A stretch of 64,000 bases of DNA from a virus (Duplodnaviria > Caudoviricetes), in the IMG/VR virus record IMGVR_UViG_3300042946_000581, positions 34,691 to 98,690 of that record, one strand, 5' to 3'. The position numbers and the translations under genes are program-made. The notes beneath the pieces are model-generated. The model was not told the origin of the DNA and searched no databases. It saw only the letters and a list, made by a program, of their open reading frames with translations. This document shows positions 31,111-63,997 of this stretch, piece after piece (positions within the stretch are counted from its first letter, which is position 1; every line of letters starts with the position of its first letter).

Positions 31111-31139
31111 ATTATAACCATAACTTTTTATTAATTCAA
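31111..31139 (-). promoter_or_regulatory. sigma70-like promoter TTGAAT-N17-TATAAT
   Basis: -35 at 31139-31134 and -10 at 31116-31111, upstream of the GT-exonuclease-dUTPase operon. Confidence 0.5.
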
Positions 31140-31151
31140 TAGAATTGGAAT

Positions 31152-31197
31152 AAAAAAACGAAACCCCACACTTTGAATTTCTTCAGGGAATGTGGGG
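31152..31197 (-). terminator. long-stem intrinsic terminator
   Basis: CCCCACA-CTTTGAA-tttc-TTCAGGG-aa-TGTGGGG stem followed by a T-rich tract on the minus strand. Confidence 0.65.
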
Positions 31198-31222
31198 AAT
31201 AAGAATTTTAAATTTATAAAAT

Positions 31223-31831: not shown

Positions 31832-31834
31832 ATT

Positions 31835-32517: not shown

Positions 32518-32518
32518 A

Positions 32519-32992
32519 TTAAATTATTGTTTTAATTATTTCATTTATTCTTTTTAGACTTTCGGTTACTTCTAAATTATATGTCGCCAATGTATTTTTA
32601 TGTTGTTGGCTTGGCCTATTATCATAACTTAAGTTTTGATTTTTTTGATGGGTTTGAATATATTGATTTGGGAGAACAGTGGATTTAATATCTTTTGACA
32701 TATCAACATTGTCCCTCATTGATGTTAATGTATTATTAACCCAAGTTTTAACATAGTCCGCTCCATTCAATATAAAAGGCATATCAGTTTTATCTCCAGT
32801 GTAATTATCAAAGAAGTTTTTCATTCTTTTTAATTGTTGATAAGTCACAAATCCAGAATCTCTTAATTCTTTATTTCTTCTATATCCTTCAGTTTTATCG
32901 TTGGCGTTGGGGATAGAATCATTGCATTGTTTTAAATAAAAAACAATTTGTTCAGGTAACTCAATTTTATCTCCGTACAAATCCTTATTCAT
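32519..32992 (-). CDS. hypothetical protein
   Basis: 157-aa ORF; C-terminal VTESLKRINEII motif. Confidence 0.6.
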   Translation of the reverse strand: MNKDLYGDKIELPEQIVFYLKQCNDSIPNANDKTEGYRRNKELRDSGFVTYQQLKRMKNFFDNYTGDKTDMPFILNGADYVKTWVNNTLTSMRDNVDMSKDIKSTVLPNQYIQTHQKNQNLSYDNRPSQQHKNTLATYNLEVTESLKRINEIIKTII

Positions 32993-33833
32993 TTTTCTTT
33001 AAAATATTAATTAATTTATTAATACTTATTCCTTCTTTCTTTGCTAAATTTTTTATTGCTTCTAAGTTCTTGTTTATAATTTTACTCAATCCACTAGCAT
33101 CACTATCTTTTTCCATAATATCGTGATTATTGCCTTTTTTAGTTAAAATGTCCTCAACCATTTTAATCATTTTTTGTTTTCTAATTTCATCTAATTTTTC
33201 TTTTTCTACTAGTCTTTGTTTTAGAACTTTTTTCCCATCTTTTGACCTATGAACTTTTTGTCCCATTAATTTTCCTAATTGTTTAGTTCTATTTAATCTT
33301 TCTTCAGGGTCATCAATTCCTAATTTTTTTAAGGTTTTCATTGTGTTATTGAAGTCCATAAATTCAGTATCATCGTAAGCAAAAGCATCTTTCATATTGA
33401 TTTCATTTACATTGTCGTTCTCTTCATTTTCACCATAAAGTCTACGTCCACCACCATACGCAAATGTAAGTCCTGGTACTCTGGTACTATCAATTGTTTG
33501 ATCCATTGTTTTCTTTGGATGCGTCCACATATTATATATTGGTGTTTTTGACGTTAAAAATGTACCATCAGAGTCAACATATTCATCAAGTTCAACTGAG
33601 TCTAAATCTTTCTCAATTTCTTTTTTTGATGCTTTGTTTTTTAAATTAATATGTTTACCAATTATATTTTTTATTTTGGTGTAACTTTTTTTATTAAATT
33701 TTCTTTTCCCCTCATTTTTCTTTGATTCTGATATTGTACCATAAACAGAATAACTTAACACAAAGTCATTCCCATTACTCTCCAAAAGAAAATAACAATA
33801 ATCATTAAAGTATTCTTTTTTATAATTGTTCAT
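32985..33833 (-). CDS. hypothetical Lys-rich protein
   Basis: 282-aa ORF preceded by a late motif. Confidence 0.6.
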   Translation of the reverse strand: MNNYKKEYFNDYCYFLLESNGNDFVLSYSVYGTISESKKNEGKRKFNKKSYTKIKNIIGKHINLKNKASKKEIEKDLDSVELDEYVDSDGTFLTSKTPIYNMWTHPKKTMDQTIDSTRVPGLTFAYGGGRRLYGENEENDNVNEINMKDAFAYDDTEFMDFNNTMKTLKKLGIDDPEERLNRTKQLGKLMGQKVHRSKDGKKVLKQRLVEKEKLDEIRKQKMIKMVEDILTKKGNNHDIMEKDSDASGLSKIINKNLEAIKNLAKKEGISINKLINILKKNE

Positions 33834-33848
33834 TAATAATTTTTCTTA

Positions 33849-33875
33849 ATAAATACTTCGGTTTAGAGTATTTAT
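33849..33875. promoter_or_regulatory. divergent back-to-back putative late promoters
   Basis: ATAAATACT-N9-AGTATTTAT, giving GTATTTAT on each coding strand. Confidence 0.55.
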
Positions 33876-33887
33876 CATAAAAAAAGA

Positions 33888-36086
33888 ATGTCCTATCAAA
33901 ATATAAGACAATTTGTACCAAGAAATGATTTTCCAATATTATCATTGGAAATATTCGATATGTCATTGACTTCAGATGAAATTGATTTCAATCAAGAGGT
34001 TGTGTTTTCCCCATATTTAATTGCTCAAACGTATGGTAATAAGTTACCATTTTACTTTGATATCAATAATAATGAGTCGGTTCAAAATTTGAATTTAACC
34101 TATAAAAACTATAATAGGAATAATATTTTTGTGTCTCAAAATTATTATAATCCAAAAGAATTGGATTTAACTTGTTTTTCATCATCAACATCTTGTGACA
34201 TAGGTTTAACAGGAATTGATAATGGATTGGTTACTGGTATGACAGGACAAACAATTTTATTTACAAATGGATTGTTACCAACCTTATTAAAATTTGACAG
34301 ATTAAGTTTTGATAGACGATTGAAATTATTTCAAGTTACGGGTAATACGACAACACAAAGTAGATTTTCAGGGTTTAATAAAACCGTTTTATATGAAGTT
34401 GTAAGTAAGACTAGTCCTTTTGAAGGTAGATATCACGAACTATATGGTGGATTTTACCAAGGGTTCTATAAGTTATTTGGATATGATTATGAAATTTTCC
34501 CTGAAAGGATGAATAAAGGTTGGTCAGTTGAAATGGTTTTAAAACCAAGATTGATTAATGAATACAACCCAAATAGTGGGGAGACTACCTTAAATCAAAT
34601 CTATCCCAATAATAAAAATATGTTCTTTTACATTGGTACTAGAGCGGAGAATAAATTTTATCATTACGCTGATGGTAGTCCAAATTGTTTTACTGGTTAT
34701 ACTAGAATTACATCAGGATTGACTGGGTTATCAACTTGTGCTTGTTGTGATGAAAACATTAAAAGTAGATGTATCTTTGTATATCCACCACGTTCAGTAA
34801 ATGGTATACACGACCCACATCTTAATTATGGTTGTAATAAGTGTGGAGGTAATAAAGAAACACAGATAACTTGTGGTTGTGGTTGCAATGATTTACCTTG
34901 TCAGAATTGTGGTTGGGAATGTAAAACACATACTTGTGGTACAATAATTCCATTAACTCCAACCCCAACACCTACTCCATCACCAACTCTAGTTTGTGAC
35001 CCATTCCCACCTCAAACTACTTGTACACCAACTTGCACGAATTGTAATGATTGTACAAGTTGTGATGATTGTGCGACAAGTGGGTTTACATCAATTGAAG
35101 ATACTTGTGAGAAGAATCCATTATTGGATACGATGAGTAATGCTTTGGGTATCAAATTATGTGGTGACCCTAAAAATCCTGGTATTGGTATTAGATTTTT
35201 AAAATTTACTGGTGGTTGTGAAATGACCGGAACTTGTACGACAAGGATGACTTATGAGACAGGTTATACGATAACTGAAATATGCACACCACCAATTTAT
35301 CCTGATTGTGAAAAAATAAATCCAGCTTGGTTAGAAGAAGAGCATTGGTTTCAAGTTAATATTGTTTGGGAACGATATGAATTTTTTAAAGATTGTGATT
35401 TATCTTTTAAAGGTGGATTGGGTGAAATAACTGAAAGAAAATATTTGGAATCTTTGGCGAATAATACAACATCGTTGATTGCCCCACCATATACAAGAGA
35501 CAAAGTTGGTTTACAAGTTGATATTATCAATTTGAATGAGATATGGTTACAAGAAGAGAAATATAGAAAGGGTAGATTAAAGATTTATATCAATGGTAAA
35601 ATATTTTATACGATTGAAGATTTTGAAGAGATTATACCTAGAGGATTAAACACTGATAAAGAAAAACAAGTTGGTGTTCCTTTTAATATTTCTTGGGGTG
35701 GTGGTACTCAAGGGTTAAGAGAAAATTTAACCTTTACTGATATGTTAGGAACTGGTTATACTCAAGACCCAGAATGTTTCCCAACTAATGATTTGAGTGG
35801 CACTACTTTAAGTGGATTAAATACAAACATATTAATCGAACAAAATTTTGCTGGAACATTTGAGGGTGGTATATCTCAATTTAGAATGTATGTTGAACCA
35901 TTAACAGCACCAGAGGTTAAACATAATTTTATTTTATTAAAAAATACATTTAGGATGTTTAATCCTGATTGTCCTGATTGTACAACAATACCTTGTGAAG
36001 TTAATGACTTCCAATTTGTTATTGTTGACCATACAACAACCACAACAACATTTAACCCAACAACAACCACAACAACATTTCTTTAA
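33888..36086 (+). CDS. virion protein with a LamG/ConA-like beta-sandwich, Cys-rich insert, PT repeat and poly-Thr tail
   Basis: W++E+VLKP...HWFQV...LKIYING...F.GGISQFRMY..PL...EV pattern; C-terminus HTTTTTTFNPTTTTTTFL. Confidence 0.6.
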   Translation: MSYQNIRQFVPRNDFPILSLEIFDMSLTSDEIDFNQEVVFSPYLIAQTYGNKLPFYFDINNNESVQNLNLTYKNYNRNNIFVSQNYYNPKELDLTCFSSSTSCDIGLTGIDNGLVTGMTGQTILFTNGLLPTLLKFDRLSFDRRLKLFQVTGNTTTQSRFSGFNKTVLYEVVSKTSPFEGRYHELYGGFYQGFYKLFGYDYEIFPERMNKGWSVEMVLKPRLINEYNPNSGETTLNQIYPNNKNMFFYIGTRAENKFYHYADGSPNCFTGYTRITSGLTGLSTCACCDENIKSRCIFVYPPRSVNGIHDPHLNYGCNKCGGNKETQITCGCGCNDLPCQNCGWECKTHTCGTIIPLTPTPTPTPSPTLVCDPFPPQTTCTPTCTNCNDCTSCDDCATSGFTSIEDTCEKNPLLDTMSNALGIKLCGDPKNPGIGIRFLKFTGGCEMTGTCTTRMTYETGYTITEICTPPIYPDCEKINPAWLEEEHWFQVNIVWERYEFFKDCDLSFKGGLGEITERKYLESLANNTTSLIAPPYTRDKVGLQVDIINLNEIWLQEEKYRKGRLKIYINGKIFYTIEDFEEIIPRGLNTDKEKQVGVPFNISWGGGTQGLRENLTFTDMLGTGYTQDPECFPTNDLSGTTLSGLNTNILIEQNFAGTFEGGISQFRMYVEPLTAPEVKHNFILLKNTFRMFNPDCPDCTTIPCEVNDFQFVIVDHTTTTTTFNPTTTTTTFL
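36033..36080 (+). repeat. 21-bp direct repeat encoding poly-Thr
   Basis: ACAACAACCACAACAACATTT at 36033-36053 and 36060-36080. Confidence 0.8.
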
Positions 36087-41801: not shown

Positions 41802-43052
41802 ATGTCAACAATATTTGTACAAATAGCCTCATTCAGAGACCCCCAACTTAATCCCACATTAGAAGATTTAATATCCAAAGCAAAATACCCTAAAAAACTT
41901 AGAATTGGTATTTGTAATCAATATAATGAAAATGATGAATTTAATCTTGACCATTATAGAAAGGATAAAAGATTTAGAATCATTGATGTAAAAGATATTG
42001 ATTCACCAGGTGTTTGTTGGGCAAGAAACCAAGTTCAACAATTATATTCAGGAGAAACATACACATTACAAATTGATTCCCATATGAGGTTTGAACAAGA
42101 TTGGGATAAAACTTTAATTGATATGATTAAAGACCTCCAATCAAAAGGATACCCAAAACCTTTATTAACTGGATATGTTTCATCATTTGACCCTGACAAT
42201 GACCCACAAGGAAGAGTTACAGAACCTTGGAGAATGACATTTGATAGATTTATTCCTGAAGGTGCTGTATTCTTTTTACCTGAAGTTATTCCAAATTGGA
42301 AAGATTTAACTGAACCAATTCCTGCGAGATTTTACTCAGCTCATTTCTGTTTTACATTAGGTGAATTTAGTAATGAAGTTCAACACGACCCTGAGTATTA
42401 TTTCCACGGAGAAGAAATATCTGTTGGGGTTAGAGCATTCACCCACGGATATGATTTATTTCATCCACACCAAGTTATTATTTGGCACGAGTACACAAGG
42501 AAGGGAAGGACTAAGCAATGGGATGTGGACAAAGAGTGGTTTAAGAAAAATGACAAATCACATTCAAGGAATAGAAGATTATTCTCAATGGATGGTGAAG
42601 TATTTGACCCTATTGAATTTGGTAAATACGGATTTGGTACTGAGAGAACTTTAGAGGATTATGAGAAATACGCTGGTATAAAGTTTAATAGAAGGGGTGT
42701 GCAGAAATATACAACAGATAAAAACTATCCCCCCAATCCATATAACTTTGAAACTGAGGAAGAATACTTAAATAGTTTTGCTAGTGTATTCAAACATTGT
42801 ATTGATGTTCATTTTGGTCAAGTTCCTGAAAAGGATTATGATTTTTGGGTTGTCGCATTTCACGATAATAAAGATGAAACAATGTTTAGACAAGATGCTG
42901 ACATCAATGAAATTAATAGAGTTATGCAAGACCCTGATGGTTATTGCAAAATATGGAGGGAATTTAATACCATAACAAAACCATCTTATTGGGTTGTGTG
43001 GCCGCACTCAAAATCAAAAGGATGGTGTGATAGAATAACTGGAAATTTGTAA
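41802..43052 (+). CDS. GT60-like polypeptide/hydroxyproline GlcNAc transferase
   Basis: TIFVQIASFRDP, G.CWAR, LQIDSHMRF..DWD, F.GEE....R.FTHGYD..HP and H.Y.R motifs, as in the Skp1 Gnt1-type GlcNAc transferases. Confidence 0.85.
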   Translation: MSTIFVQIASFRDPQLNPTLEDLISKAKYPKKLRIGICNQYNENDEFNLDHYRKDKRFRIIDVKDIDSPGVCWARNQVQQLYSGETYTLQIDSHMRFEQDWDKTLIDMIKDLQSKGYPKPLLTGYVSSFDPDNDPQGRVTEPWRMTFDRFIPEGAVFFLPEVIPNWKDLTEPIPARFYSAHFCFTLGEFSNEVQHDPEYYFHGEEISVGVRAFTHGYDLFHPHQVIIWHEYTRKGRTKQWDVDKEWFKKNDKSHSRNRRLFSMDGEVFDPIEFGKYGFGTERTLEDYEKYAGIKFNRRGVQKYTTDKNYPPNPYNFETEEEYLNSFASVFKHCIDVHFGQVPEKDYDFWVVAFHDNKDETMFRQDADINEINRVMQDPDGYCKIWREFNTITKPSYWVVWPHSKSKGWCDRITGNL

Positions 43053-43056
43053 AATT

Positions 43057-43890
43057 ATGAAAATTGTTACAGCAATATATGAATTAGTATATGAAGGTTC
43101 AAGAGGTGGAGGCGTATATAAATCATTCCCCCTATTAACCGAAACTATGCGAAATATAATTTTTGAAGATTTTGAGTATGTAATATACACAAATAAAGAC
43201 ACCTATCAGAAGTATAATTTAAACAACTATTTTAATAAACCTAACATTGAAATAAAATTTGTTGAATTAAATTCAGAGTATTATTTGAATAAGATTGAAC
43301 CAATAAGGCAAAAAGTTTTTAACTCGCAAGAAATTTATGATAGAATATACACGGTTAAAAATTATTTAGAGGTAATATTAAATAAATTACAATTTATATT
43401 AAATGAGACCAATGATAATGAAAATGTGATTTGGATTGATTCTGGTTTATTTGGTACAAGTTGTCATGATAGATGGAGAGATTATATGGTTAAAATAGCA
43501 CATACTAAAACATTTTTAATTAAATTAAATGAATGTGTGGATAAGTATAATTTTATTTGTATAAGGGGGAATCAAATTAATATTAATTATGAATTAAAAC
43601 AAGATATATTAGAATTATTTGGTGTTGATTTAAAAATTATTCCTGGTGGTATTTTTGGAGGTAAATCTGAATATATCAAACAAATTATTGGAAATTATAA
43701 AGAGGTTTTTAACACATTCTTAGAATGTAAAAATAAATTAATTAGTGAACAAGAAGTTTTATCAGTATTAACATCAAAAACAAATACTAAATTTTTTGAA
43801 ATAAACGATTGGTTAGATTTTCAAAGAGGTATTTTGGAAATTATGGATTTATTAACCGATAAATATAAAACTGATAGTTGTTATGAATAG
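43057..43890 (+). CDS. HtrL/YibB-like protein
   Basis: KIVTA+Y, WIDSG, GGIFGG and SEQ motifs. Confidence 0.6.
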   Translation: MKIVTAIYELVYEGSRGGGVYKSFPLLTETMRNIIFEDFEYVIYTNKDTYQKYNLNNYFNKPNIEIKFVELNSEYYLNKIEPIRQKVFNSQEIYDRIYTVKNYLEVILNKLQFILNETNDNENVIWIDSGLFGTSCHDRWRDYMVKIAHTKTFLIKLNECVDKYNFICIRGNQININYELKQDILELFGVDLKIIPGGIFGGKSEYIKQIIGNYKEVFNTFLECKNKLISEQEVLSVLTSKTNTKFFEINDWLDFQRGILEIMDLLTDKYKTDSCYE

Positions 43891-44599
43891 TCAAAGTTAT
43901 TGTTTTGCCACATTTTGTTTTGGTGAAAGATATAGAATACAAACCAATAGATTAATTGAAAATTTAGAAAAAATTAATAATAACACATTATTATTTGTAA
44001 TAACAGATGATGAGACTCAGATAAAAAAATTACCTTGGGTTATAGTAAAAAATATTAATTTTTACGATTCAACCTATTTGAAGTATGCCACAAACTATTT
44101 TGACTTTGATTTTTCAGTAAAAAGATTTGTACTTAGGTTGGCATCAGAAAACAATTTCTATAATATTGTTTTATTAGACACAGATAATTTAGTTGGTGGT
44201 AATTATTCAGAATCAAGAATTATAGAAAGTTTTAGAAAAAATTCTATTTTAGGTCCTGTAATTTACGAATATCAAAAAGAAATTTTATCTAATTCTATGT
44301 TAGGTAGAAGATTCAATCATTATGAAAAAATTTTTGACGTTCATTTAAATAAAAAAGATTTGTGGATGCCTGAGGATTGTATTCAATTTATTAGTATTGA
44401 AAAGAATAATTTTGAAAATTTTTTAAATACTTGGGATGAATGTATTAAAATAAAATATAGAGATAACCTACCTAATATTCCTGCTGGTAACATTGATGAA
44501 ATGTGTTTTTCCGCGTTAAAAAATGGAATTAATGTTGGGGGTAATTCAGATAAATCTGTAAATATTTTTACAGCACAGCACGATTTATGGTATAGATAA
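43883..44599 (+). CDS. putative GT-A-like glycan enzyme
   Basis: FV+TDD, K...L..A and LLDTD (DxD) motifs; glycan operon context. Confidence 0.45.
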   Translation: MNSQSYCFATFCFGERYRIQTNRLIENLEKINNNTLLFVITDDETQIKKLPWVIVKNINFYDSTYLKYATNYFDFDFSVKRFVLRLASENNFYNIVLLDTDNLVGGNYSESRIIESFRKNSILGPVIYEYQKEILSNSMLGRRFNHYEKIFDVHLNKKDLWMPEDCIQFISIEKNNFENFLNTWDECIKIKYRDNLPNIPAGNIDEMCFSALKNGINVGGNSDKSVNIFTAQHDLWYR

Positions 44600-46266
44600 T
44601 GATAACATTAGTAACAGGATTATGGAATATAGGTAGAGATAAACTTCAAGAGGGTTGGTCAAGGTCTTATCAACACTACTTGGATAAGTTCTCCCAATTA
44701 TTAGAAGTTGATTGTAATTTAATTATTTTTGGTGATAGTGAATTACAACAATTCGTTAATGATAGAAGAAATAATAACAATACCCAATTCATATTAAGAA
44801 ACTTGGATTGGTTTACCAATAATGAATTTTATCCAAAAATACAAGAAATCAGACAGAAACCTGAATGGTATAATCAAGTTGGTTGGTTAAAAGATTCAAC
44901 CCAAGCAAAACTTGAAATGTATAATCCATTGGTTATGTCAAAAGTGTTTTTACTACACGATGCAAAACTTTTGGATAAATTCAATTCGGAGTATATGTTT
45001 TGGATTGATGCTGGTTTAACAAATACAATCCATCCAGGTTATTTCACCCACGATAAAGTATTAGATAAATTACCAAAATCTTTAGGTGATTTTAATTTTG
45101 TTTGTTTTCCCTATGAAACAACAACTGAAATACACGGATTCACTATTTCTGAGATGAATAGATTAACCAATTCAAATGTTAATAAAGTTGCAAGAGGTGG
45201 ATTCTTTGGTGGTAAGAAAGAAGTTATATCTGAAATAAACTCAATATATTATCAATTATTATCAGATACATTGAATAGGGGATATATGGGGACTGAGGAA
45301 AGTATATTCACTTTGATGGTTTATCTTTATCCAAATCTAATAACTTATTTTGATATTGAACCAAATGGATTGATGGGTAAATTTTTTGAGGATATAAAGG
45401 AGAATAGATTACAACCCAAGAAAGAAAAAAAATTCTTACAAGTTCAAAGCAATACATCAATAGATAAAGTTGGATTGTATGTTATAACATTTAATTCCCC
45501 AAAACAATTTGAAACTTTAATCCAATCAATGTTGGAGTATGATGTTGACTTTATAAACAAACCTAAAAAGTTTTTACTAGACAATTCAACGGATTTAACA
45601 ACAACACCAAGATATAAAGAGTTATGTGAACAATATGGTTTTGAACATATTAAAAAAGATAACCTTGGTATAATGGGTGGTCGAATTTTTATAGCAGAAC
45701 ACTTTAATGATACTGACTTAGACCTGTATTTTTTCTTAGAGGATGATATGTTTTTCTATCCAAAAAATGAAACTTGTAAAAATGGGTTTAATAGATATGT
45801 TAAAAATTTATATAAGAAAAGTTTGGAGATTATTCAAAAAGAAAACTTTGATTTCCTCAAATTTAACTTCACAGAATTTTATGGTGATAATAACACACAA
45901 TGGGCTTGGTATAATGTCCCACAAGATTTCAGACAAAAACATTGGCCTAATAATACAAAACTTCCACAGATGGGATTAGACCCCAATTCACCAAAAACTG
46001 AGTTTAAACACATTAAAACTCATAAGGGTATTCCATATATAAGTGGAGAAATATATTTGTGTAATTGGCCAATTATTATGAATAAGGAGGGGAATTATAA
46101 ATGTTATTTGGAAACAAAATGGGCACATCCATTCGAACAAACCCTCATGTCTTATTGTTATCAAGAAACAATTAAAGGTAGAATAAATCCTGGATTGTTA
46201 TTATTAACCCCAACTGAACATAATAGATTTGACCATTACGATGGTAAGCTTAGAAAAGAAAATTAA
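44599..46266 (+). CDS. HtrL/YibB-like domain fused to a GT2-like domain
   Basis: ITLVTGLWNIGR, SKVF.L.DA, FWIDAG, GGFFGG, GTEES; C-domain FFLEDD. Confidence 0.7.
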   Translation: MITLVTGLWNIGRDKLQEGWSRSYQHYLDKFSQLLEVDCNLIIFGDSELQQFVNDRRNNNNTQFILRNLDWFTNNEFYPKIQEIRQKPEWYNQVGWLKDSTQAKLEMYNPLVMSKVFLLHDAKLLDKFNSEYMFWIDAGLTNTIHPGYFTHDKVLDKLPKSLGDFNFVCFPYETTTEIHGFTISEMNRLTNSNVNKVARGGFFGGKKEVISEINSIYYQLLSDTLNRGYMGTEESIFTLMVYLYPNLITYFDIEPNGLMGKFFEDIKENRLQPKKEKKFLQVQSNTSIDKVGLYVITFNSPKQFETLIQSMLEYDVDFINKPKKFLLDNSTDLTTTPRYKELCEQYGFEHIKKDNLGIMGGRIFIAEHFNDTDLDLYFFLEDDMFFYPKNETCKNGFNRYVKNLYKKSLEIIQKENFDFLKFNFTEFYGDNNTQWAWYNVPQDFRQKHWPNNTKLPQMGLDPNSPKTEFKHIKTHKGIPYISGEIYLCNWPIIMNKEGNYKCYLETKWAHPFEQTLMSYCYQETIKGRINPGLLLLTPTEHNRFDHYDGKLRKEN

Positions 46267-46292: not shown

Positions 46293-47507
46293 TTATTTCT
46301 TAATAAATCTATGTGTTTTTATTTCTTGTTCAGTTTCAATTGAGATTACATAAACGCCACTAGGTAAATCGGTAATATCTATTTTCTCCAAATTTGATTT
46401 GATATTATTTTTACTGAATATTTGTTTTCCAATATTATCAATAATCTTTATGCTATAAATTGAATTATCAATAATATGTTTTTGAATTACAAGTTCGTTA
46501 TTGGAAGGTGTAAATGAGAAATTATTATCATTTTTGATTTCAACAACAGAAATATTAGAATATGATGTATGACCACCTTCAACCCATTTTAATCTGTAAT
46601 ATGTATATCCATTTGATGTTGGGGTTTTATCATTAAAGTCAAAAAAAGATTGGTCTGAATTTGTAACATTAACAAATCCAATTGAATCAAATTCAATTCC
46701 ATCTAATGATTTTTCAATAACAAATCCATCAATATATTCATCAAGAATAACATTCCAAAATAAATAAACATCTTTGTTACTCTTTCTGTATTCGGTATTA
46801 AAATATAATAACTCAAGGGGGAATATTGTACAATCATATATTTCCTCAAGAAGAACATTATCAATCCACCATTCTTCACCAGCAGAATTAACTCTACAAA
46901 GTATGTCTACAGCTATTTGAGTCGCACCTGGGGGTATGGTTAATTGTACTACAGAAAATCCATCACCAGTTGTTGTTCTGTTACCACCAGCGGTTGGTGT
47001 ATAAAAAGTTGCTAAACCATTTGCGGTTTTACTTGCAACACCTAAAGTGTTATAATCCCAAAAAGCATTACTGAATCCACGAATACGTATTTCACCAAAA
47101 TATGTGACTCCTCCATTGGTGCTAAGTTGAACTTCAACGAAATCAGTATTGTCAACACCTCTTGTTGTTGCTGCAGGACTTGAGAACACATATGAAGCCA
47201 ATCTAAAAGAGAATCTATGTGTAGAGGTTGGGTTAAGCCCTATAATATTTGGCATAACATACCAATCTTGTTCTACACCTGAAGTTCCATTACCAGCACC
47301 AAATATAACAGCACTTAGGTTTGGGGAAACCGAAGCATTATTAAAAAATCCTGTGTTTGTTGTTGTTGTGTTAGGAGGAGTTCTCCACCAATCGCCAGAC
47401 CAATTAAAGGTCTCCATATTATCAAATGCTATTGTGTCAATACAAGTTTGACTTTTAGCTAAAAAACTTGTTAGAGTTATAATTAATGTAATTAATACTT
47501 TTTTCAT
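46293..47507 (-). CDS. secreted protein with a Sec signal peptide and a T9SS (Por) C-terminal sorting domain
   Basis: Signal MKKVLITLIITLTSFLAKSQ; PLELLYF...W...F.IEKS.DG..F..IG.V...YYRLK; C-terminal I.D..GK...IDI..LPSGVY.I.I......+F+KK. Confidence 0.85.
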   Translation of the reverse strand: MKKVLITLIITLTSFLAKSQTCIDTIAFDNMETFNWSGDWWRTPPNTTTTNTGFFNNASVSPNLSAVIFGAGNGTSGVEQDWYVMPNIIGLNPTSTHRFSFRLASYVFSSPAATTRGVDNTDFVEVQLSTNGGVTYFGEIRIRGFSNAFWDYNTLGVASKTANGLATFYTPTAGGNRTTTGDGFSVVQLTIPPGATQIAVDILCRVNSAGEEWWIDNVLLEEIYDCTIFPLELLYFNTEYRKSNKDVYLFWNVILDEYIDGFVIEKSLDGIEFDSIGFVNVTNSDQSFFDFNDKTPTSNGYTYYRLKWVEGGHTSYSNISVVEIKNDNNFSFTPSNNELVIQKHIIDNSIYSIKIIDNIGKQIFSKNNIKSNLEKIDITDLPSGVYVISIETEQEIKTHRFIKK

Positions 47508-47807: not shown

Positions 47808-48428
47808 TTAATAAAAAGGATGACAATATTTGTTTATCCTTTTTTTATTTTCATAGAGTTTAATTTTAGAACAATTATAATTTTGACTATATAAACGTTC
47901 TCCTTTAATCTGTGTTAATAATTTAATATTAAATAAACCTTTATTTAACTTTTCAATACTTAGTACAATACTATAAGTGGTTATGTCACCATTTGGTAGA
48001 ATTGCATTATGATTTATAAGTTCCATACAAGGTCTTGGTTTTTTTTCCCAATTTATATTTTTTATATATGGATAAATTATTGTATCCATATTTTTTTCAA
48101 TTAAATCTAAACCCTCAAATAATTCAGGGTCTTCAATAGATTCATTGTTCTTGTATTCATCTTCCATCTTACGATTTAATCTCTGAAGCCAATGTTTGGT
48201 TGGTTCAATAAGAATATTATAATTACCCACTTTAAGAGAATCACCAGCATTGTACATTCTTTTAATTTTGTTTTTAATCAAGGCTACATCCTCACTATAT
48301 ATTGGGGCTTTGGCAACACCCTCGTTGATAGGGAATAAATGTTTAATTTCATCAAAATCATAAGCAATAACTTCAATATAGTTATTATTAATTTCTTCTC
48401 TTAATATTTTTTTTATCAAATTTCTCAT
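47808..48428 (-). CDS. hypothetical protein with an IKKILREE leader
   Basis: 206-aa ORF; TKHWLQR motif weakly suggests an RNase-toxin-like fold. Confidence 0.6.
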   Translation of the reverse strand: MRNLIKKILREEINNNYIEVIAYDFDEIKHLFPINEGVAKAPIYSEDVALIKNKIKRMYNAGDSLKVGNYNILIEPTKHWLQRLNRKMEDEYKNNESIEDPELFEGLDLIEKNMDTIIYPYIKNINWEKKPRPCMELINHNAILPNGDITTYSIVLSIEKLNKGLFNIKLLTQIKGERLYSQNYNCSKIKLYENKKRINKYCHPFY

Positions 48429-48474: not shown

Positions 48475-51132
48475 ATGGAATTTTTTATAAAGAAGAACGC
48501 AACGTTACCTCTTCTTAAATTACAAGTGGTTAAGAATGGTAGATTGGACTATAACAACTTTATGAGTTTGATAGAGCAATCTGCTTTATTTTTTTCTATG
48601 GTTGATATAGAAACTGGAGTTGAGAAGATTGTTTCAAGACCTGCAGGATTTGTCGAGAAGACAAATGTTGACCCAAATGCTGAAAAGGAATATTATTTAT
48701 ATTACCAATTCCAAAATAGAGATACGAATAGAGTTGGTAGATATGAAGGACAATTTATGTTAAGAAGTTCTGATGGTGTTTTAATATTACCAATTAGAGA
48801 AAAATTATATATAAATGTTCAAGAATCTTATATTGCTGATGATTTGGAATATGATTCTTGTTACATATCTGAATTTCCTTGTTGTGTTAATGGACCCACA
48901 ACAGCTATCACAATAAATTTAAATATAGTAAGTGTTGTAACCGTAAGTTCAGTAAAGGTTGATTATATTGTAACATCTTCTGATATATTAACAGACACAC
49001 TAACATTAAATTTTACAAATACTTTAGGACAATTAGTTGGAACTGGATTAACAATTTCAATTGGTATTACAATAAATGCTGGTTCAAACATTGGGTTTGG
49101 TGAGGTTATATTACCTGACGATTACTATAATTTGGATGGAACTTCAACATTCAGTAATATTTCGGTTGTTTATCCAATTGCTTACAATTTTGTGGAATCA
49201 TTTAATACAATATTTCCTCCACAGCCAACACCAACACCATCACCAGTACAACAAATAATTGACGCAATTTTAACTGATGAAACTGATGTGTATGTTGAAG
49301 TTGGTAGTGATGAATATTTGAGTTATGTTGACCCAACTCTTGAATATCTTGTAAACGTTTATATTGCAAGTGGTTCGGTTATAACAACATTTACAATAAC
49401 TTCTAATATACCTATAAATGAAGTTGTTTCAATACCATTATCTCTTAATTTGGGATTAATTGGTGGTGGAAGTGTAAACATTTCGGCAACGGTTATTATT
49501 CCTGTGAATCAAACATCAGGTCAAACTATTACTAACAATTCTTCTTTGAATTTTTATAGTTTGAATCAAACTGGTGAATTGTTCATTGATTCTCCAAGTA
49601 TTGATTTTCCAATTAATTTCTTGGCAAATCAAATACAATTTGAACAACCACCAACTCCGACACCTACACCTACAATAACTCCAACGATTACACCTACATC
49701 GTCTGAGACACCAACACCAACACCTACAGAAACTCTGACACCAACACCTACATCGTCTGAGACACCAACTCCGACACCAACGATTACGCCTACATCGTCA
49801 GAGACACCAACTCCGACACCTACGCAGACTCCTACACCTACTCCAAGTCCAGTACCAAATCCGTTCATATCAATATGGAGAACAACAACTCCAAATGAAA
49901 CAATTAACTTACCATATAATCCTAGTGGTAATTATAGCGGAACTATTGATTGGGGTGATGGGAATATCATACCTAATACTTACACTAACAGAAGTCATAC
50001 CTATGTAACATCTGGTGATTATATCGTAACAATAGATTATGGAATTATTGATGGTTTTAGTTTTGGGAATGACTTCTCTTCGGCATCAAAACTTATTGAG
50101 GTAAATAGATGGGGTTGTTTAGGGATTGGAAATAGTGTTTATGGTTATTTCAGTAATTGTAGTAATTTAATTTTAACTGGTGTTACTGACACATTGAATT
50201 TAGCTGGGGTTACAAATCTTTCAAGTATGTTTAATAGTTGTGTTAGTTTAACAACAGTAAATAATATGGATTCTTGGGATGTATCTAACGTGACAAGTAT
50301 GACGGGAATGTTTCAAAACGCAACATTATTCAATCAAGATATTAATAGTTGGGATGTATCTAATGTAACAAATGTGGTTAGTATGTTTAAAGGAGCTTCC
50401 TCTTTTAATCAACCATTGAATAGTTGGGATATTTCTTCAGTTGGGTCTTTGGGAACTTACGAAGGTGGGATGTTTCAAGATGCAACATCATTTAATCAAG
50501 ATATTAATGGATGGGATGTTTCAAATGTTACTGATATATCATTTATGTTTAAAGGAGCAAGTTCATTTAACCAACCATTAAGTGGATGGAATGTTTCAAG
50601 TGTTACTACTATGATTGCGATGTTCTCAAATGCAACATCATTTAATCAAAATATTAACAATTGGAATGTGTCTGGAGTTACTAATATGGTGAGCATATTC
50701 AATAACGCAACATCATTTAATCAACCATTAAATAGTTGGGTTGTTTCTAATGTAACTATTATGAATGGAATGTTTGGGGGTGCAACCTCATTTAACCAAC
50801 CATTAAGTGGGTGGAATGTTTCTAATGTTACTAGTATGTTTGCTATGTTTACAGCATCCGTGTTTAATCAAGATATTAGTAATTGGGATGTTTCTAGTGT
50901 AATTAGTATGCAAAATATGTTTTCTTCAACACCTACATTTAATCAAGACATTAGTGGTTGGGATGTTGTTAATGTAACTAATATGGCTTTTATGTTCCAA
51001 TTCGCATCATCTTTCAATCAAGATTTAAGTTCTTGGTGTGTTACAAATATACCTTCATTACCAACTAACTTTGATTTAAACGCAACATCTTGGGTATTAC
51101 CAAAACCAATTTGGGGAACTTGTCCACCATAA
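48475..51132 (+). CDS. virion protein: BppU-like N-terminus, PT-repeat stalk, DUF285/BspA-like LRR C-terminus
   Basis: F+IK+N.TLP.L...DT...G.Y.G+F N-terminus; long TPT tract; more than ten FNQ[DP][IL]..W[DN]VS.VT.M..MF repeats. Confidence 0.75.
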   Translation: MEFFIKKNATLPLLKLQVVKNGRLDYNNFMSLIEQSALFFSMVDIETGVEKIVSRPAGFVEKTNVDPNAEKEYYLYYQFQNRDTNRVGRYEGQFMLRSSDGVLILPIREKLYINVQESYIADDLEYDSCYISEFPCCVNGPTTAITINLNIVSVVTVSSVKVDYIVTSSDILTDTLTLNFTNTLGQLVGTGLTISIGITINAGSNIGFGEVILPDDYYNLDGTSTFSNISVVYPIAYNFVESFNTIFPPQPTPTPSPVQQIIDAILTDETDVYVEVGSDEYLSYVDPTLEYLVNVYIASGSVITTFTITSNIPINEVVSIPLSLNLGLIGGGSVNISATVIIPVNQTSGQTITNNSSLNFYSLNQTGELFIDSPSIDFPINFLANQIQFEQPPTPTPTPTITPTITPTSSETPTPTPTETLTPTPTSSETPTPTPTITPTSSETPTPTPTQTPTPTPSPVPNPFISIWRTTTPNETINLPYNPSGNYSGTIDWGDGNIIPNTYTNRSHTYVTSGDYIVTIDYGIIDGFSFGNDFSSASKLIEVNRWGCLGIGNSVYGYFSNCSNLILTGVTDTLNLAGVTNLSSMFNSCVSLTTVNNMDSWDVSNVTSMTGMFQNATLFNQDINSWDVSNVTNVVSMFKGASSFNQPLNSWDISSVGSLGTYEGGMFQDATSFNQDINGWDVSNVTDISFMFKGASSFNQPLSGWNVSSVTTMIAMFSNATSFNQNINNWNVSGVTNMVSIFNNATSFNQPLNSWVVSNVTIMNGMFGGATSFNQPLSGWNVSNVTSMFAMFTASVFNQDISNWDVSSVISMQNMFSSTPTFNQDISGWDVVNVTNMAFMFQFASSFNQDLSSWCVTNIPSLPTNFDLNATSWVLPKPIWGTCPP
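49648..49860 (+). repeat. Pro/Thr tandem repeat (TPTSSETPTPTPT units)
   Basis: Repeated ACACCTACATCGTCTGAGACACCA-like units. Confidence 0.8.
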
Positions 51133-59512: not shown

Positions 59513-60115
59513 TTATTTAGATTTTACCATATTATAGATATATTCGGCAGCTTTATCAATATTATCAACACCCTTTCTAGTTAGTTCTGTTCTAATTATG
59601 TGTAACATATATTTAAATCTAGAAGCCGAAGGATTGTTACCATAACCTTTAAGTGGTGGGTGTTTTGAATCTAGAAGTCCCTTTTGGTTTAATTCTCTAA
59701 CTTTTCTTACACCAAACTCATCGGCAACTGCCTCATATTTCGCCATTGCTTCAGCCGCATCATCCAAAGGAACTTCGTTTAAATAAAGACCCATCATTTT
59801 TTCAGCACCATATTTTTTAAATTGATATTGATGTGCTAATTCGTGGAAGATAATAAAAAGAGCTTGAGTGGGATTATATTTTTTAAAAATTTGAGGGTTA
59901 ATAACTAATTTGTTATGTAAAGCTAACCCATCAGGACCCGATAACATTTCAAGCGAAACTTTTTTACAATCAGTTTTTTCAAATATTGATTTCACTTCAT
60001 CAATTAGTTCATCACTTAATTTTAATTCGTTTTTTAAGGTTTCAAGAAATTCATCCAAACCTTCAGTAGCTTCTAAAAGAAGTTTATATTGTGATTCTGT
60101 TATTATAATTTTCAT
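59513..60115 (-). CDS. HExxH zinc metallopeptidase (ImmA/IrrE-like) with an ITESQ leader
   Basis: IIFHELAHQYQ...YEAVADEFG; leader MKIIITESQYKLLLE. Confidence 0.7.
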   Translation of the reverse strand: MKIIITESQYKLLLEATEGLDEFLETLKNELKLSDELIDEVKSIFEKTDCKKVSLEMLSGPDGLALHNKLVINPQIFKKYNPTQALFIIFHELAHQYQFKKYGAEKMMGLYLNEVPLDDAAEAMAKYEAVADEFGVRKVRELNQKGLLDSKHPPLKGYGNNPSASRFKYMLHIIRTELTRKGVDNIDKAAEYIYNMVKSK

Positions 60116-61236
60116 TATATTACATATATTTGTCTAGGCATAGCTTGGAATTTCTTTACCTTGTTTAAGTTTTCAGCAATTAACGCTTCTCTCTCCATAA
60201 CCTTTTCTGGTCTTAGTCTTGTTAATTTACCTTCAGCACCAGTTAATTCTTCAAGTAATTTTGTTTTTTCATCCTTACCTTCAGTTGCTAAAGATTGGTA
60301 ATCCATTGTGAGTTCACTATCTGGTGTTTTGATATTACCACTAAACTTACCTCTAACTTTGGATAAAGTTTCCTTGGCTGTGGCAAAGAACCATTTACGT
60401 ACCCAAATTTGAGCTGGATTATTTAAATCAGTCCAACCAATTTTATTAAGTGGAACATCTGATGGTAATTTGATTATATCAGGATTTTTTTTCAAACAAT
60501 CATCTCTATCAGGACCATCAACTTCATAATACCAATACCAAACTCTACCACCCATTAAAGACCTATTACCAAAGTCAAATTTACCTCCAGGTGTTTGCAT
60601 AAGATGTATAGCTTTTTTACCTTCAGGTAGGGCTGTGATACGATAAGTCAAATCACCAGCAATAATTCTTCTTTGGATGTTGACTTCTTGCATCCTTAAT
60701 AACATATCAAAGACAGGCGCCATAAAATATGAACCGGTATTACCCAATTGGGCGAATCCACCAGGTCCACCTACACCGGTACCACCAAAAGCCCCAAATG
60801 AAAAGGCATCAAAAAAAATGTTATTTATTGTGCTAGGTGTAAACCATAATAATTCATTTATTTCTCTACCAGCAGGTATTTCATATATTTGTTGATTATG
60901 TACAAGTTGTATATAATCTTTCTTCATTACATTATCACCACCAGCTTGTAGGCCAACTATTTTTGAATATGCGTAAGAATAACGTTCTTCAAAATCAAAA
61001 CTTTTGGTGATGAATGCTTTGGTTAATGATTCTGTGTCTAAGTTTAAACCATATAATGATGACCATTGAGATTCAATTAACCAATCTTGGATATATTGAG
61101 AATAATCTTCAATTGATAAAGCTAATAATGAATCCAATTGTTCGTCTTCCAATTCAATACTTCTAAGAGGCGCACCTAATAGATGTCTCAATCTTGTGTA
61201 TAGTTGGGTTCTTTCTGGTTCAGGAATTATTGACAT
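60115..61236 (-). CDS. gp13-like neck/head-completion protein
   Basis: LRHLLGAPLRSIELEDEQLD N-terminus and W++K+..A..KE.L..VRGKFSG C-terminus, as in T4 gp13-type neck proteins. Confidence 0.75.
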   Translation of the reverse strand: MSIIPEPERTQLYTRLRHLLGAPLRSIELEDEQLDSLLALSIEDYSQYIQDWLIESQWSSLYGLNLDTESLTKAFITKSFDFEERYSYAYSKIVGLQAGGDNVMKKDYIQLVHNQQIYEIPAGREINELLWFTPSTINNIFFDAFSFGAFGGTGVGGPGGFAQLGNTGSYFMAPVFDMLLRMQEVNIQRRIIAGDLTYRITALPEGKKAIHLMQTPGGKFDFGNRSLMGGRVWYWYYEVDGPDRDDCLKKNPDIIKLPSDVPLNKIGWTDLNNPAQIWVRKWFFATAKETLSKVRGKFSGNIKTPDSELTMDYQSLATEGKDEKTKLLEELTGAEGKLTRLRPEKVMEREALIAENLNKVKKFQAMPRQIYVI

Positions 61237-61263: not shown

Positions 61264-63984
61264 TTAACTATAAAGTAGTTTATTTATTTTATTTTTATAA
61301 AACCTAATAGCTTCAGAAATATTTTCATCGTTTATTCCCAATTCTTTTAATTTGTTTTTATAATAAGACATTCTTTCTTGATAGAGTTTAATTAATTGGT
61401 CTTTATCTTTTTCTAACCTTGGGTTTGTCTTACCTTTTAATTGTGGAGTCATTAACTCTATATTAGTCATATTTGTTTTAAAAGGTTCTTCATAATAGTA
61501 AATGTATTTAGGTATATTTACATCACCTTCAAGATTATTTCTTTTATAATTAGAATTTGGTGTTGTTATTATTTTTGAAAAATCATTATCAAAAATGATA
61601 TATTCTTTATTTTCTTGATTAACATAAACTATTAAATCAACATTTTCTTCTTTATATTTTGTGTGTTCATGCCAAGATGCTACCCTATAATACTTACCCC
61701 TATCAGAATTAAAAAGTTTAACATACCCTTCTTTTATAGATTTTATTTGGAAATGTATTGGTTCTTCATTTTCAAATTTTAAAACAATGTCTTGTCCTTT
61801 TATGGTGTCCGCTTTTGAACCCCCACAATTAAAATTAATTTTATATTCAATATCTTGTTTATATTTATCTAAACCAAAGGCTAAATTAATCATATCTCTA
61901 CCATATTCTTCATTTTTTAAACCTTGTTCAAAGTTTTCAATAGAGACTTTTGCCAATCTATCAATCCATTTTCCATCATTTGAAAATAAATCAACTCTAT
62001 TGTCATCAATCCATTGACGTAATGATATGGAGTATTTTTTTATTTTATTTTCAGTTTTAAATTTTTCAGCTTCTTCTTTATATATTTTTTCTATTTCACT
62101 ATGGACATTACTATTCGCATCCCATCTATTTACTAATGACCAATTACCTTTTCCACCATATCTTTCTTCAGTGTAGTCACCTCCAATAATACCAATATTA
62201 GTTGGACCACATTCTGGTATATTTAAATCACCTTTACAACCATTAACCCAACCTTCAATTGGATTATTACTATCACATTTATTATAAACACTTTGAATTA
62301 TACTGCGCATAGTTCTAAAATTTGGAAAATCAGATTTAGCTTCATTTAATAATTCCCTTTTTGTTATAGATTCAGTTAAATTAATTTTTGATAGGTATAG
62401 TCTATCCGATTTAAATTTAATATTTTCAGATTTGAAAATATAAGAATATCTTTCTTTGGATTGTCCCCCATCATCTTTCACCTCAACATTTTTAAAATCA
62501 AAAAATACATAGTTTTTAATATTATCAATAAATGCAAATATATTAATATTATTAGGTGTATATTTATTTTTACTTTTGAAAACATATTTTACTTGACCAT
62601 CAATATTAGTTTCATATAAATCTCTTGTTGGTTTAACTTGAATATATTCTGAGATATCCTCCCTTGTTAATTTCATATCTTGACCTTTATATTTGTCTCT
62701 AACATCACCATCACAAAATCTAGTAATATTTGAGTTACCATATTCTTTATTCAAGATTTCAAGAGCCAAACTTTCACGAGATGAACCATAATCTAAAGTA
62801 CCCTTTTTAGTTTGGGGATTCATTATAAAATCAGCTAATTCACTAGTAAACATACCATCATCACTTAGTAATGTTTTTTTCAATTTAAAAAACCAACTAA
62901 TAAAATCTAATCCCTCCTTATTGTATTTTTCAAAATATTCTAATATTTTATCACTAACTTTGGTATTAGCATCAAACCAATTTATAACTGACCATTCACC
63001 AATTCCACCTCTTTGACTTACAGCATATTTACCACCTATTACACCATAGTTTGTTTCACAGTCATTAGTTTTAATTTTTCCAAAACAAGGTTCTGTTATG
63101 TGTGTGTCTTTATTATAGTCATTAATAATTTCAGGTGAACATTTTGGATATACTTTAGGTAACATCACATCAAATACCTTTGGATTAATTCTACCATTTT
63201 CCTTAATAAATTCAGTAACCTTACCAAAATCTTTTACTGGGTTGTATTTGAAATTTTTGTATGAACCTTCTTCAGTAATAACTTTATTAGATTTTATAGA
63301 TTCTTTTAATTTTGTTTTTAGTTTTGATAAATAAACATCATTAACAAATTCCCAATTCACAACATCCCAAAATCTTTTAATATATTCATCTCTCTTACTT
63401 TGATATTTCAAATAATAGGCGTGTTCCCACAAATCCAATCCCAATAAAGGATAACCACCATCAATGTCATTCATTTGGGGATTATCTTGATTTGGTGTTG
63501 TCATAATTTTTAATCTATTGTTTTTGGTTAATACCAACCAAGCCCAACCTGACCCAAATCTTCCAATAGATTCTTCTTCAAATTTTTTCTTAAATTCTTT
63601 GTAAGAACCAAATTCTTTATTTATTTTGGTTAATATTTCTCCTTTGATTGTTTGTTTATCAGGTGATAACATTTTCCAAAATAATGAATGGTTGTAAGCC
63701 CCACCACCATTATTTCTAATTACTTTTGGATATCTTGTAATTGATTTAATTATATCTTCCAATTCAACATTACCATAGTTCTTTTTTGATAAGGCATCGT
63801 TAAGTTTTTTAACATATCCTTTATAGTGTTTGTTGTAATGAACATTCATTGTTTTTACATCAATGAATCTGGTTAATGAGTCATAACCATAAGGTAATTT
63901 ATCAATACCAATCTTTTTGGCTTCAGTTATTAAACTTTCACCTAATAATATAGTTTCTTTTAATAGTTCTAATTTCTTTTCCAT
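61264..63984 (-). CDS. sodA: Mn/Fe superoxide dismutase fused to two tandem PD-(D/E)XK-like domains
   Basis: LPYGYDSL, HYNKH, NNGGG.YNHSLFW, FGSGWAWL, NQD and DLWEHAYY motifs, then two ~300-aa repeats with E...D..GQD...Q[VI]K. Confidence 0.8.
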   Translation of the reverse strand: MEKKLELLKETILLGESLITEAKKIGIDKLPYGYDSLTRFIDVKTMNVHYNKHYKGYVKKLNDALSKKNYGNVELEDIIKSITRYPKVIRNNGGGAYNHSLFWKMLSPDKQTIKGEILTKINKEFGSYKEFKKKFEEESIGRFGSGWAWLVLTKNNRLKIMTTPNQDNPQMNDIDGGYPLLGLDLWEHAYYLKYQSKRDEYIKRFWDVVNWEFVNDVYLSKLKTKLKESIKSNKVITEEGSYKNFKYNPVKDFGKVTEFIKENGRINPKVFDVMLPKVYPKCSPEIINDYNKDTHITEPCFGKIKTNDCETNYGVIGGKYAVSQRGGIGEWSVINWFDANTKVSDKILEYFEKYNKEGLDFISWFFKLKKTLLSDDGMFTSELADFIMNPQTKKGTLDYGSSRESLALEILNKEYGNSNITRFCDGDVRDKYKGQDMKLTREDISEYIQVKPTRDLYETNIDGQVKYVFKSKNKYTPNNINIFAFIDNIKNYVFFDFKNVEVKDDGGQSKERYSYIFKSENIKFKSDRLYLSKINLTESITKRELLNEAKSDFPNFRTMRSIIQSVYNKCDSNNPIEGWVNGCKGDLNIPECGPTNIGIIGGDYTEERYGGKGNWSLVNRWDANSNVHSEIEKIYKEEAEKFKTENKIKKYSISLRQWIDDNRVDLFSNDGKWIDRLAKVSIENFEQGLKNEEYGRDMINLAFGLDKYKQDIEYKINFNCGGSKADTIKGQDIVLKFENEEPIHFQIKSIKEGYVKLFNSDRGKYYRVASWHEHTKYKEENVDLIVYVNQENKEYIIFDNDFSKIITTPNSNYKRNNLEGDVNIPKYIYYYEEPFKTNMTNIELMTPQLKGKTNPRLEKDKDQLIKLYQERMSYYKNKLKELGINDENISEAIRFYKNKINKLLYS

Positions 63985-63988: not shown

Positions 63989-63997
63989 TATAAATAT
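63989..63997 (-). promoter_or_regulatory. putative late promoter ATATTTATA
   Basis: Immediately upstream of the ATG at 63984. Confidence 0.55.

Follow-up and report, generated by a model that had tools for sequence, protein, structure and literature searches.

At the very end of a 98,690-bp contig from an uncultured tailed phage (Caudoviricetes; IMG/VR record IMGVR_UViG_3300042946_000581), a single open reading frame (ORF) joins a superoxide dismutase (SOD) to two further modules through short linkers that carry protease-type motifs. What kind of protein is this 906-residue chain, labeled P0001 here, and does it act as one enzyme or as the precursor of several? The window referred to below is the whole stretch that was analyzed, the last 64 kb (64,000 nucleotides) of the contig. 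Our favored reading, to which we assign a probability of roughly 55%, is that P0001 is a head-cargo polyprotein of a T4-like myovirus and would be cleaved by the prohead protease. The motifs at its domain boundaries, their conservation across relatives and their likeness to the maturation site of the same phage's capsid protein all point in this direction.

Architecture of P0001

P0001 consists of a leader, a complete SOD and two paralogous modules of ~300 residues, A and B, joined by motif-bearing linkers (Table 1). The original prediction had proposed this layout (leader, SOD, linker, A, linker, B and tail), and every string it quoted was found in its place: KLKESIKSNKVITE at residue 225, NLTESITKRELLNE at 535, NISE at 888, NNGGG at 91, NQD at 165, and GQD at 434 and 730. 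The ATG of P0001 lies only 16 nucleotides from the contig end, and tests of the contig for a terminal repeat or circularity found neither. This ATG is considered the true start because in a 96%-identical relative (L004) the reading frame is closed by a TAA nine codons upstream and contains no ATG between that stop and this start.

The SOD domain appears intact and Mn-like, as had been predicted. Both Pfam domains are present, Sod_Fe_N (PF00081) at residues 27-107 (5.9e-21, 75.2 bits vs. a cut-off of 27) and Sod_Fe_C (PF02777) at residues 114-216 (5.7e-40, 135.9 bits vs. a cut-off of 20.9), and the SOD part aligns over its full length with experimental structures of Mn or Mn/Fe enzymes (5n56_A, 1.6e-60; 1jr9_A, 1.4e-59). 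H49, H99, D184 and H188, which we take to be the four metal ligands, are invariant among the 25 aligned relatives described below and identical in 5n56 and 1jr9. The NNGGG and P-N-Q-D strings, presumably markers of the Mn type, both lie within the domain. Cambialistic SODs exist; the nearest structures and this signature suggest Mn over Fe.

The claim that A and B are paralogues is borne out by BLASTP (E 1e-14, 28% identity across 217 residues) and by the E...D...QxK pattern conserved in both. The start of B was cut ~34 residues late in this comparison, which shortened the alignment and did not create it.

Candidate cleavage sites at the domain boundaries

The contig encodes a Peptidase_S77 prohead protease (PF03420, 4.5e-23) that is 33% identical to a Tequatrovirus gp21 and conserves H92, S155 and D181, presumably its catalytic triad. 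T4 gp21 cleaves after glutamate. In the capsid protein of this phage, L-I-N-E60/A61 aligns onto L-T-E65/A66 of Tequatrovirus slur14 gp23. According to the portions of the cited papers drawn on here and below, the prohead protease removes 65 N-terminal residues of T4 gp23 (PMC9958956), T4 Alt is cut at ITE-6 and LTE-619, several cuts inside one propeptide are usual, and T4 internal head proteins enter the core via a capsid targeting sequence (CTS) (PMC5694885). From the homology of the capsid protein we infer that the [IL]-x-E specificity of the protease holds in this phage. Given the position of the capsid cut, the best-understood substrate of the phage shares its motif with the polyprotein sites L-I-T-E21/A, I-T-E238/E, L-T-E538/S, L-N-E548/A and I-S-E891/A.

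Within P0001, [IL]xE occurs 18 times. Eight of these motifs (E10, E16, E21, E228, E238, E538, E548 and E891) fall in the leader, linkers and tail. With a combined length of ~53 out of 906 residues, these segments would be expected to hold about one. As these segments were partly defined by the motif itself, conservation across relatives is the stronger test. The linker segments are modeled with low confidence, fragment residues 1-6 and 300-310 having predicted local distance difference test (pLDDT) scores under 50.

A protein search returned 36 proteins including P0001, 33 of them with a precomputed SOD Pfam domain; 25 were aligned, and 11 were omitted as truncated or near-duplicates. E10 and E21 of the leader are invariant over the alignment. 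Columns with [IL]xE in at least 80% of the 25 sequences are E10, E21, E187, E228, E238 and E458, four of the six lying in the leader or linker 1; E187 belongs to the W-E-H of the SOD. With Val allowed, E538 and one column within a partner module are also conserved. The I-S-E891 tail motif is retained in the seven aligned relatives that share the B type of C-terminal module. The linker sequence around the sites varies widely among lineages.

A wider sample came from a collection of viral contigs, which yielded 174 relatives, with 78 loci fetched. Among 103 distinct proteins, 89 have the junction before the SOD, and the remaining 14 are missing the N-terminal part of the SOD. All 89 carry an N-terminal extension of 21-45 residues that ends in [ILVM]-x-E directly before the SOD, with Glu at P1 in every case and P3 occupied by I (50), L (34), V (3) or M (2); the residue after the putative cut is M, A, G or T. 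Behind the SOD, at least one [ILV]xE occurs within 32 residues in 77/77 proteins and at least two within 40 residues in 76/77, compared to a background density of 0.022 per residue, and the first two sites are spaced 10 residues apart in 45 of the 76. After module A, at least one site is present in 37/37 proteins and at least two in 35/37.

The protease-type sites originally placed at the domain boundaries therefore match the motif of a T4-type prohead protease, with the protease on the same contig and the motif also in the capsid protein, where it is homologous in position to the T4 gp23 cut. The accompanying proposal of three separate proteins is too simple, since each linker holds two sites ~10 residues apart.

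The main rival explanation, which we consider somewhat unlikely, is that P0001 remains uncleaved and acts in the infected cell as a multidomain enzyme, either as a single chain or as a dimer, with the linkers serving as flexible charged spacers. SODs are dimers, and a dimeric SOD could act as a dimerizing platform for the nucleases. The commonness of [IL]xE in the proteome would fit such an enzyme, and the swapping of modules at linkers, described below, suits any multidomain protein. However, an uncleaved enzyme leaves unexplained why an extension ending in [ILVM]-x-E precedes the SOD in 89/89 proteins, why both linkers carry paired sites ~10 residues apart, why the motif is identical with the capsid maturation site of the same phage, and why the N termini of stand-alone module genes bear the same tag.

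Predicted nuclease fold of modules A and B

In each module, the first ~150 residues contain three invariant Cys and a G-x-I-G-G...W-S-x-x-N motif, followed by the nuclease-like core. Across 18 members only 18-35% identical to module A, E404, D430, D436, Q449 and K451 do not vary, and invariance at such divergence is typical of an active site. In the AlphaFold model of A (pLDDT 87.9, predicted template modeling score 0.81, from 27 sequences), E404 lies in helix H158-177, D436 just before strand E199-203, and Q449-x-K451 within strand E206-213. This follows the PD-(D/E)xK layout, with catalytic residues on helix 1 and at strands 2 and 3, except that Gln replaces the usual acid. Some restriction enzymes carry QxK. 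Module B was modeled from 8 sequences with a pLDDT of 69.6.

The top Foldseek rows for module A are Hjc resolvases (E 1.2e-2, probability 0.99), I-Ssp6803I, D212 and EcoRV. A search independent of Foldseek gave Hjc 1hh1_A (Z 6.5, root-mean-square deviation 4.0 over 102 residues, with the caution line of the aligner at 8), Hjc 2wcw (Z 6.0), I-Ssp6803I (Z 5.6), Hjc 1gef (Z 5.3) and HhaI (Z 5.1); these five chains are the sole matches at Z >= 5 among 48,161 chains, and none reaches 8. For module B, the matches are I-Ssp6803I (Z 5.7), HhaI (Z 5.3), DpnI (Z 5.2), D212 (Z 5.1) and Hjc (Z 5.0), in a list that is also mixed with helical noise coming from the tail.

Sequence relatives point the same way. 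A distant family member, P0094 (A/B profile E 1.9e-12), exceeds the cut-off of the Pfam model RE_MjaI (PF09568; 24.4 bits vs. 22.7), the sole match above cut-off among the 77 of 129 A/B representatives scanned against Pfam. In a language-model atlas, the closest named clusters carry PDDEXK_5 (score 0.88), which is a lead only. Tentative from the fold matches alone, the PD-(D/E)xK assignment gains weight from the invariant residues, the RE_MjaI match of P0094 and the PDDEXK_5 clusters. The predicted folds of A and B match PD-(D/E)xK nucleases best, with modest but consistent scores, and the two modules are putative nucleases. The nuclease signature first noticed in these modules thus stands as an invariant pattern with the best fold matches, but at scores (Z 5-6.5) under the line of 8.

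A and B have their best predicted-fold matches with Hjc and I-Ssp6803I (PDDEXK_5), follow PD-(D/E)xK nucleases in the arrangement of E...D...xK, as placed in the model of module A, and connect to MjaI through the distant member. Unlike these nucleases, they have Gln in place of Asp/Glu and an extra Cys-rich N-terminal subdomain of ~150 residues, and they lack a direct Pfam, PHROG or PDB sequence match. Pfam and PHROGs searches with the whole of P0001 gave nothing significant at residues 239-906, PHROGs giving no match at all; a Pfam W02B3_4_N match was discarded (15.5 bits vs. a cut-off of 27). Sequence searches of the PDB with P0001 or the A/B profile returned no A/B relative (lone match E 0.42), and tblastn against 50,697 phage records returned matches to the SOD only and none to modules A and B.

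P0001 could also be head cargo in which A and B do not cut DNA and act as RNA nucleases, or as binding proteins or decoys that block host defense nucleases. Subunits of tRNA-splicing endonucleases are among the modest fold matches (Z 4.6-5.8), Gln rather than Asp or Glu occupies the third catalytic position, and T4 internal protein I (IPI) inhibits a host restriction enzyme without itself being an enzyme (PMC3012670). Against such a role stand the active-site-like invariance of E404, D430, D436, Q449 and K451 across the 18 members and the reach of P0094 to a curated restriction-enzyme model, and we regard it as unlikely.

Module exchange and N-terminal tags

All 25 aligned proteins share the leader, SOD and module A and differ in their C-terminal module, which is of three unrelated types (B, C and D); the sequences diverge within linker 2. 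Other lineages combine the SOD with one A/B-like module or with other unnamed modules, and in another lineage an HExxH module of ~115 residues is followed by a leader-like linker and then the SOD, in chains of 363-367 or ~700-730 residues (Table 1). Pfam scans of the other partner modules and of the HExxH-SOD forms identified SOD only. A relationship between the HExxH module of that lineage and the 200-residue HExxH protein of the window was considered and rejected, as only the motif matches (E 0.31).

The SOD-A-B layout of the original prediction needs amending in that the C-terminal module is exchangeable and an HExxH module precedes the SOD in other lineages. The statement that no such SOD fusion is known in cells agrees with a scan of one genome per prokaryote species for two A/B peptide patterns, in which none of 137 pattern matches was confirmed; this is a weak, pattern-limited absence.

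A profile of A, B and their stand-alone 381-residue relatives retrieved 135 cluster representatives from 1.84 billion proteins, 63 of them at E <= 1e-10, and most are stand-alone proteins of 250-400 residues. A tag of the form [ILVMF][TSN]E[SENKQD] occurs in the first 14 residues of 26/104 Met-starting stand-alone proteins vs. 61/2531 internal windows, typically as MK-I-I-I-T-E-S-Q-Y. The same kind of N-terminal tag is found on seven other ORFs of this genome, including the neighboring 200-residue HExxH protein. When a position matrix of these seven ORFs is applied, the two best-ranked of the 73 Glu anchors in P0001 are E538 and then E21, and both fall within the top 1% of a background of 1936 anchors. 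On account of this ranking and of the tagged stand-alone genes, the linkers look like retained N-terminal tags of formerly separate genes. A literature search on the tag letters returned unrelated words only.

Just past the capsid region lies a cluster of genes without Pfam matches whose products start with L/I-T/N/S-E-S/E, like the polyprotein linkers. Like the internal-protein genes of T4, they may encode additional head cargo.

Genomic context and upstream element

The source phage is an uncultured T4-like myovirus with a G+C content of ~29%. Outside the window, the contig encodes a large terminase, a Portal_T4 gp20-type portal (5.3e-75), two small core-position genes, the Peptidase_S77 protease, a 485-residue scaffold-position gene and a Gp23-type capsid protein (1.2e-72), and the order of these head genes is identical to that of T4 (taken from LN881736.1). 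The capsid protein has 622 residues (contig 30353-32221; L002:12353-14221), and its Gp23 Pfam match begins only at residue 360, indicating a long insertion relative to T4 gp23. Directly after the capsid gene are two endonuclease genes, one endonuclease VII-like and the other of HNH or homing type (contig 32293-34808).

The P0001 gene heads a co-directional run comprising a 373-residue gene, the 200-residue HExxH protein and a 112-residue ORF, on which a family-B DNA polymerase gene converges. The 373-residue product is probably a gp13-like neck or adaptor protein. Across the 78 loci, 70 have the neck-like gene directly downstream of the SOD gene, 65 contain the 112-residue ORF and 62 the polymerase. 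In relative L004, tail tube and tail sheath genes are found within 10 kb upstream.

This neighborhood could suggest a different role, that of an unprocessed structural or accessory protein of the virion, for example near the neck or on the head surface, its place next to the neck gene then reflecting assembly partners rather than cargo. The position directly upstream of the gp13-like gene in 70/78 loci, near tail genes, would suit such a protein. Every recognizable part of P0001 is, however, an enzyme, its partner modules vary freely among close relatives, which is unusual for a structural subunit, and the leader and linker motifs are left unexplained. We consider a structural role very improbable.

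The element TATTTATA lies 4 nucleotides upstream of the P0001 ATG and is also found 4-22 nucleotides upstream of the terminase, core, scaffold-position, neck-like and other genes (Table 1). Of its 35 copies, 13 lie 0-40 nucleotides upstream of a same-strand ORF vs. 7/35 for the control word TATAAATA, and it is kept upstream of the SOD gene in related loci, even in distant relatives. Reverse-complemented, TATTTATA gives the T4 late promoter word. It leaves no space for a Shine-Dalgarno sequence, and this phage group may use it as its late promoter. The T4 late promoter TATAAATA itself was dropped as a candidate for the SOD gene, since it occurs in only 2 of 50 distinct upstream regions.

A very large sugar-modification gene set (window 14584-31089, minus strand, and 41802-46266, plus strand) includes at least eight glycosyltransferase-family genes, four methyltransferases, and WbqC-like, PIG-L deacetylase and HtrL/YibB-like genes, with PhoH and dUTPase interspersed. 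Its target could be the virion, the host surface or DNA, and it bears on how a packaged nuclease would spare the phage's own DNA. A 404-residue protein (window 46293-47507, minus strand) has a type IX secretion sorting domain (Por_Secre_tail, 3.4e-9), which hints at a Bacteroidota host. An 885-residue protein with four DUF285 repeats (E 4.8e-100; window 48475-51132, plus strand) is followed by an 893-residue protein without Pfam matches; both genes have TATTTATA upstream, and the proteins may be fibers or receptor-binding proteins. A ClpB-like double AAA+ protein (AAA_2, 2.1e-68; contig 14855-16885, minus strand; L001) or an M28/M42-like peptidase (contig 12960-13775, plus strand; L001) could share in protein processing. 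Eight tRNA genes (2 Met, Tyr, Gly, Ala, Thr, Arg and Leu) and a homing-endonuclease-like gene occupy contig 1-4786 (L001).

Table 1. Coordinates of P0001, its parts and associated features (window positions unless a contig or locus is named)
Feature	Position	Strand	Basis
P0001, whole ORF, 906 residues plus stop, ATG start	61264..63984	-	ORF calling
Leader, residues 1-21, ending L-I-T-E21 / A22	63922..63984	-	Alignment, motif conservation
Fe/Mn superoxide dismutase, residues 27-216, Mn-like signature	63337..63906	-	Pfam, PDB matches
Linker 1, residues 225-238, candidate cuts L-K-E228/S and I-T-E238/E	63271..63312	-	Alignment
Module A, residues 239-534, Cys-rich N-terminal subdomain and nuclease-like core	62383..63270	-	Profile, model
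PD-(D/E)xK-like core of module A, residues 396-528	62401..62799	-	Fold matches, invariant residues
Linker 2, residues 535-548, candidate cuts L-T-E538/S and L-N-E548/A	62341..62382	-	Alignment
Module B, residues 549-891, paralogue of module A, retains E, D and QxK	61312..62340	-	BLASTP, model
C-terminal tail, residues 892-906, after I-S-E891/A	61267..61311	-	Alignment
TATTTATA element upstream of the P0001 ATG	63989..63996	-	Word scan
373-residue gene, directly downstream	60115..61236	-	phrog_211 2.3e-9; PDB gp13 E 0.47, not significant
200-residue HExxH protein (SprT-like, weak), starts MK-I-I-I-T-E-S-Q	59513..60115	-	ORF, tag scan
Tagged ORFs	1386-2789, 2807-3121, 4157-4630, 4898-5788	+	N-terminal tag
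Tagged ORFs	6308-6778, 47808-48428	-	N-terminal tag
Genes with TATTTATA upstream	contig 22498, 26273, 28865, 34842, 36076, 39588, 83165, 85861, 94805		
HExxH-SOD loci	L016-L025, L034, L045, L046, L050, L059, L071 (e.g. L017:5627-7783)		

A head-cargo model and the points against it

In the head-cargo model, the SOD-polyprotein gene would be expressed together with head and neck genes, and the leader would direct the whole 906-residue polypeptide into the prohead's scaffolding core, in the way that the CTS directs T4 internal proteins and Alt. Residues 1-25 of the leader have their best match in the genome, by short BLAST, in residues 1-29 of the scaffold-position protein (contig 28865-30322; L002:10865-12322). 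The activated Peptidase_S77 protease would then cleave after Glu in [IL]-x-E, with candidate cuts at E21, E228 and/or E238, E538 and/or E548, and perhaps E891. Cleavage would yield equal numbers of a Mn-type SOD and of two nuclease-like enzymes of the PD-(D/E)xK type, along with spacer peptides of ~10 residues, and the freed enzymes would remain with the packaged DNA and then enter the host alongside it. Packaging, cleavage, injection and the targets of the enzymes are all predictions that go beyond the presence of the sites.

Several observations weigh against this model. The proteome is rich in K, E, I and L, and [IL]xE is a common motif in it (0.019-0.022 per residue); because the relatives share descent, the site counts are non-independent samples. 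The tail site E891 sits at the start of a predicted helix rather than in a loop, and the match between leader and scaffold-position protein is weak (E 0.032), gapped and N terminus to N terminus. Likeness between linkers and tags is also weak in P0001, with scores of only 1.8 and -2.0 bits in the position-specific scoring matrix, and the enrichment of TATTTATA is modest for a genome of 29% G+C. For the nuclease fold, Foldseek found no match of module A in the PDB at E <= 1e-3, and the best Z score of 6.5 is under the caution line. The cargo role and the cleavage are both predictions from sequence, and in the case of cleavage this equally favors an uncleaved enzyme. Finally, a packaged active nuclease must spare the phage's own DNA, and evidence of DNA modification was not found. 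A foreign nuclease packed into T4 via the CTS coexists with the DNA of a viable phage (PMC3012670).

A broader and more tentative extension of the head-cargo model is that the [IL]-T/N-E-S... tag and the [IL]-x-E sites might form a portable address label for a large, recombining pool of injected enzyme cassettes among uncultured T4-like phages, with a single leader loading a fixed 1:1:1 set. SOD, PD-(D/E)xK-like nucleases and HExxH proteases would belong to the pool, along with two or more unnamed modules. Active nucleases would stay harmless in the capsid and reach the host together with an antioxidant.

Relation to known systems

The P0001 system would extend the known T4-type head-cargo system. 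As with T4 IPI-III and Alt, the phage has a T4-type head module and the protein an N-terminal extension ending in [IL]-x-E. The I-T-E and L-T-E motifs at which Alt is cut (ITE-6 and LTE-619) recur in P0001, and Alt also provides a precedent for C-terminal trimming as at the P0001 tail (PMC5694885). The cargo of T4 internal proteins likewise consists of varied enzymes or anti-defense proteins that share only a tag (PMC3012670). Unlike IPI-III and Alt, P0001 strings several enzymes on one chain with paired internal sites, includes a SOD and has a longer leader (21-45 residues), and its cargo status is predicted from its sequence.

The ejection or inner-body proteins of the giant phages phiKZ, 201phi2-1 and SPN3US are similar in that a gp21-related protease cuts many head proteins after Glu at a three-residue motif, with multiple sites in single precursors, and the proteins are ejected into the host (PMC5694885). 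Their motif is A/S-x-E, in contrast to [IL]-x-E in P0001, and the portion of that account drawn on here does not describe SOD or PD-(D/E)xK cargo (PMC5694885). A virus-encoded SOD in a virion has a precedent in A245R of Paramecium bursaria chlorella virus 1 (PBCV-1), a Cu/Zn SOD that is the product of a late gene, is packaged in the virion and is linked to lower superoxide early in infection (PMC7019647). Unlike P0001, it belongs to the Cu/Zn rather than the Fe/Mn family, comes from a virus that infects eukaryotes, and stands alone rather than in a putatively protease-processed fusion.

Our literature search, which did not cover subscription journals, found no description of a SOD with a CTS, of a phage-encoded SOD or, among the papers listed, of a SOD in connection with phage virions and a prohead protease. 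Beyond T4 and a few giant phages, the non-DNA cargo of tailed phages is, to our knowledge, little known. If the head-cargo model is true, widespread uncultured phages (174 relatives) would deliver SOD and nucleases at infection, and oxidative stress and DNA attack would be early battlegrounds between phage and host. Head cargo could then take the form of a cleavable polyprotein, as in RNA viruses, and the A/B family, with its 135 cluster representatives, would be a new branch of restriction-enzyme-like proteins. The shared tag, in turn, would provide a sequence rule to find other injected proteins in metagenomes.

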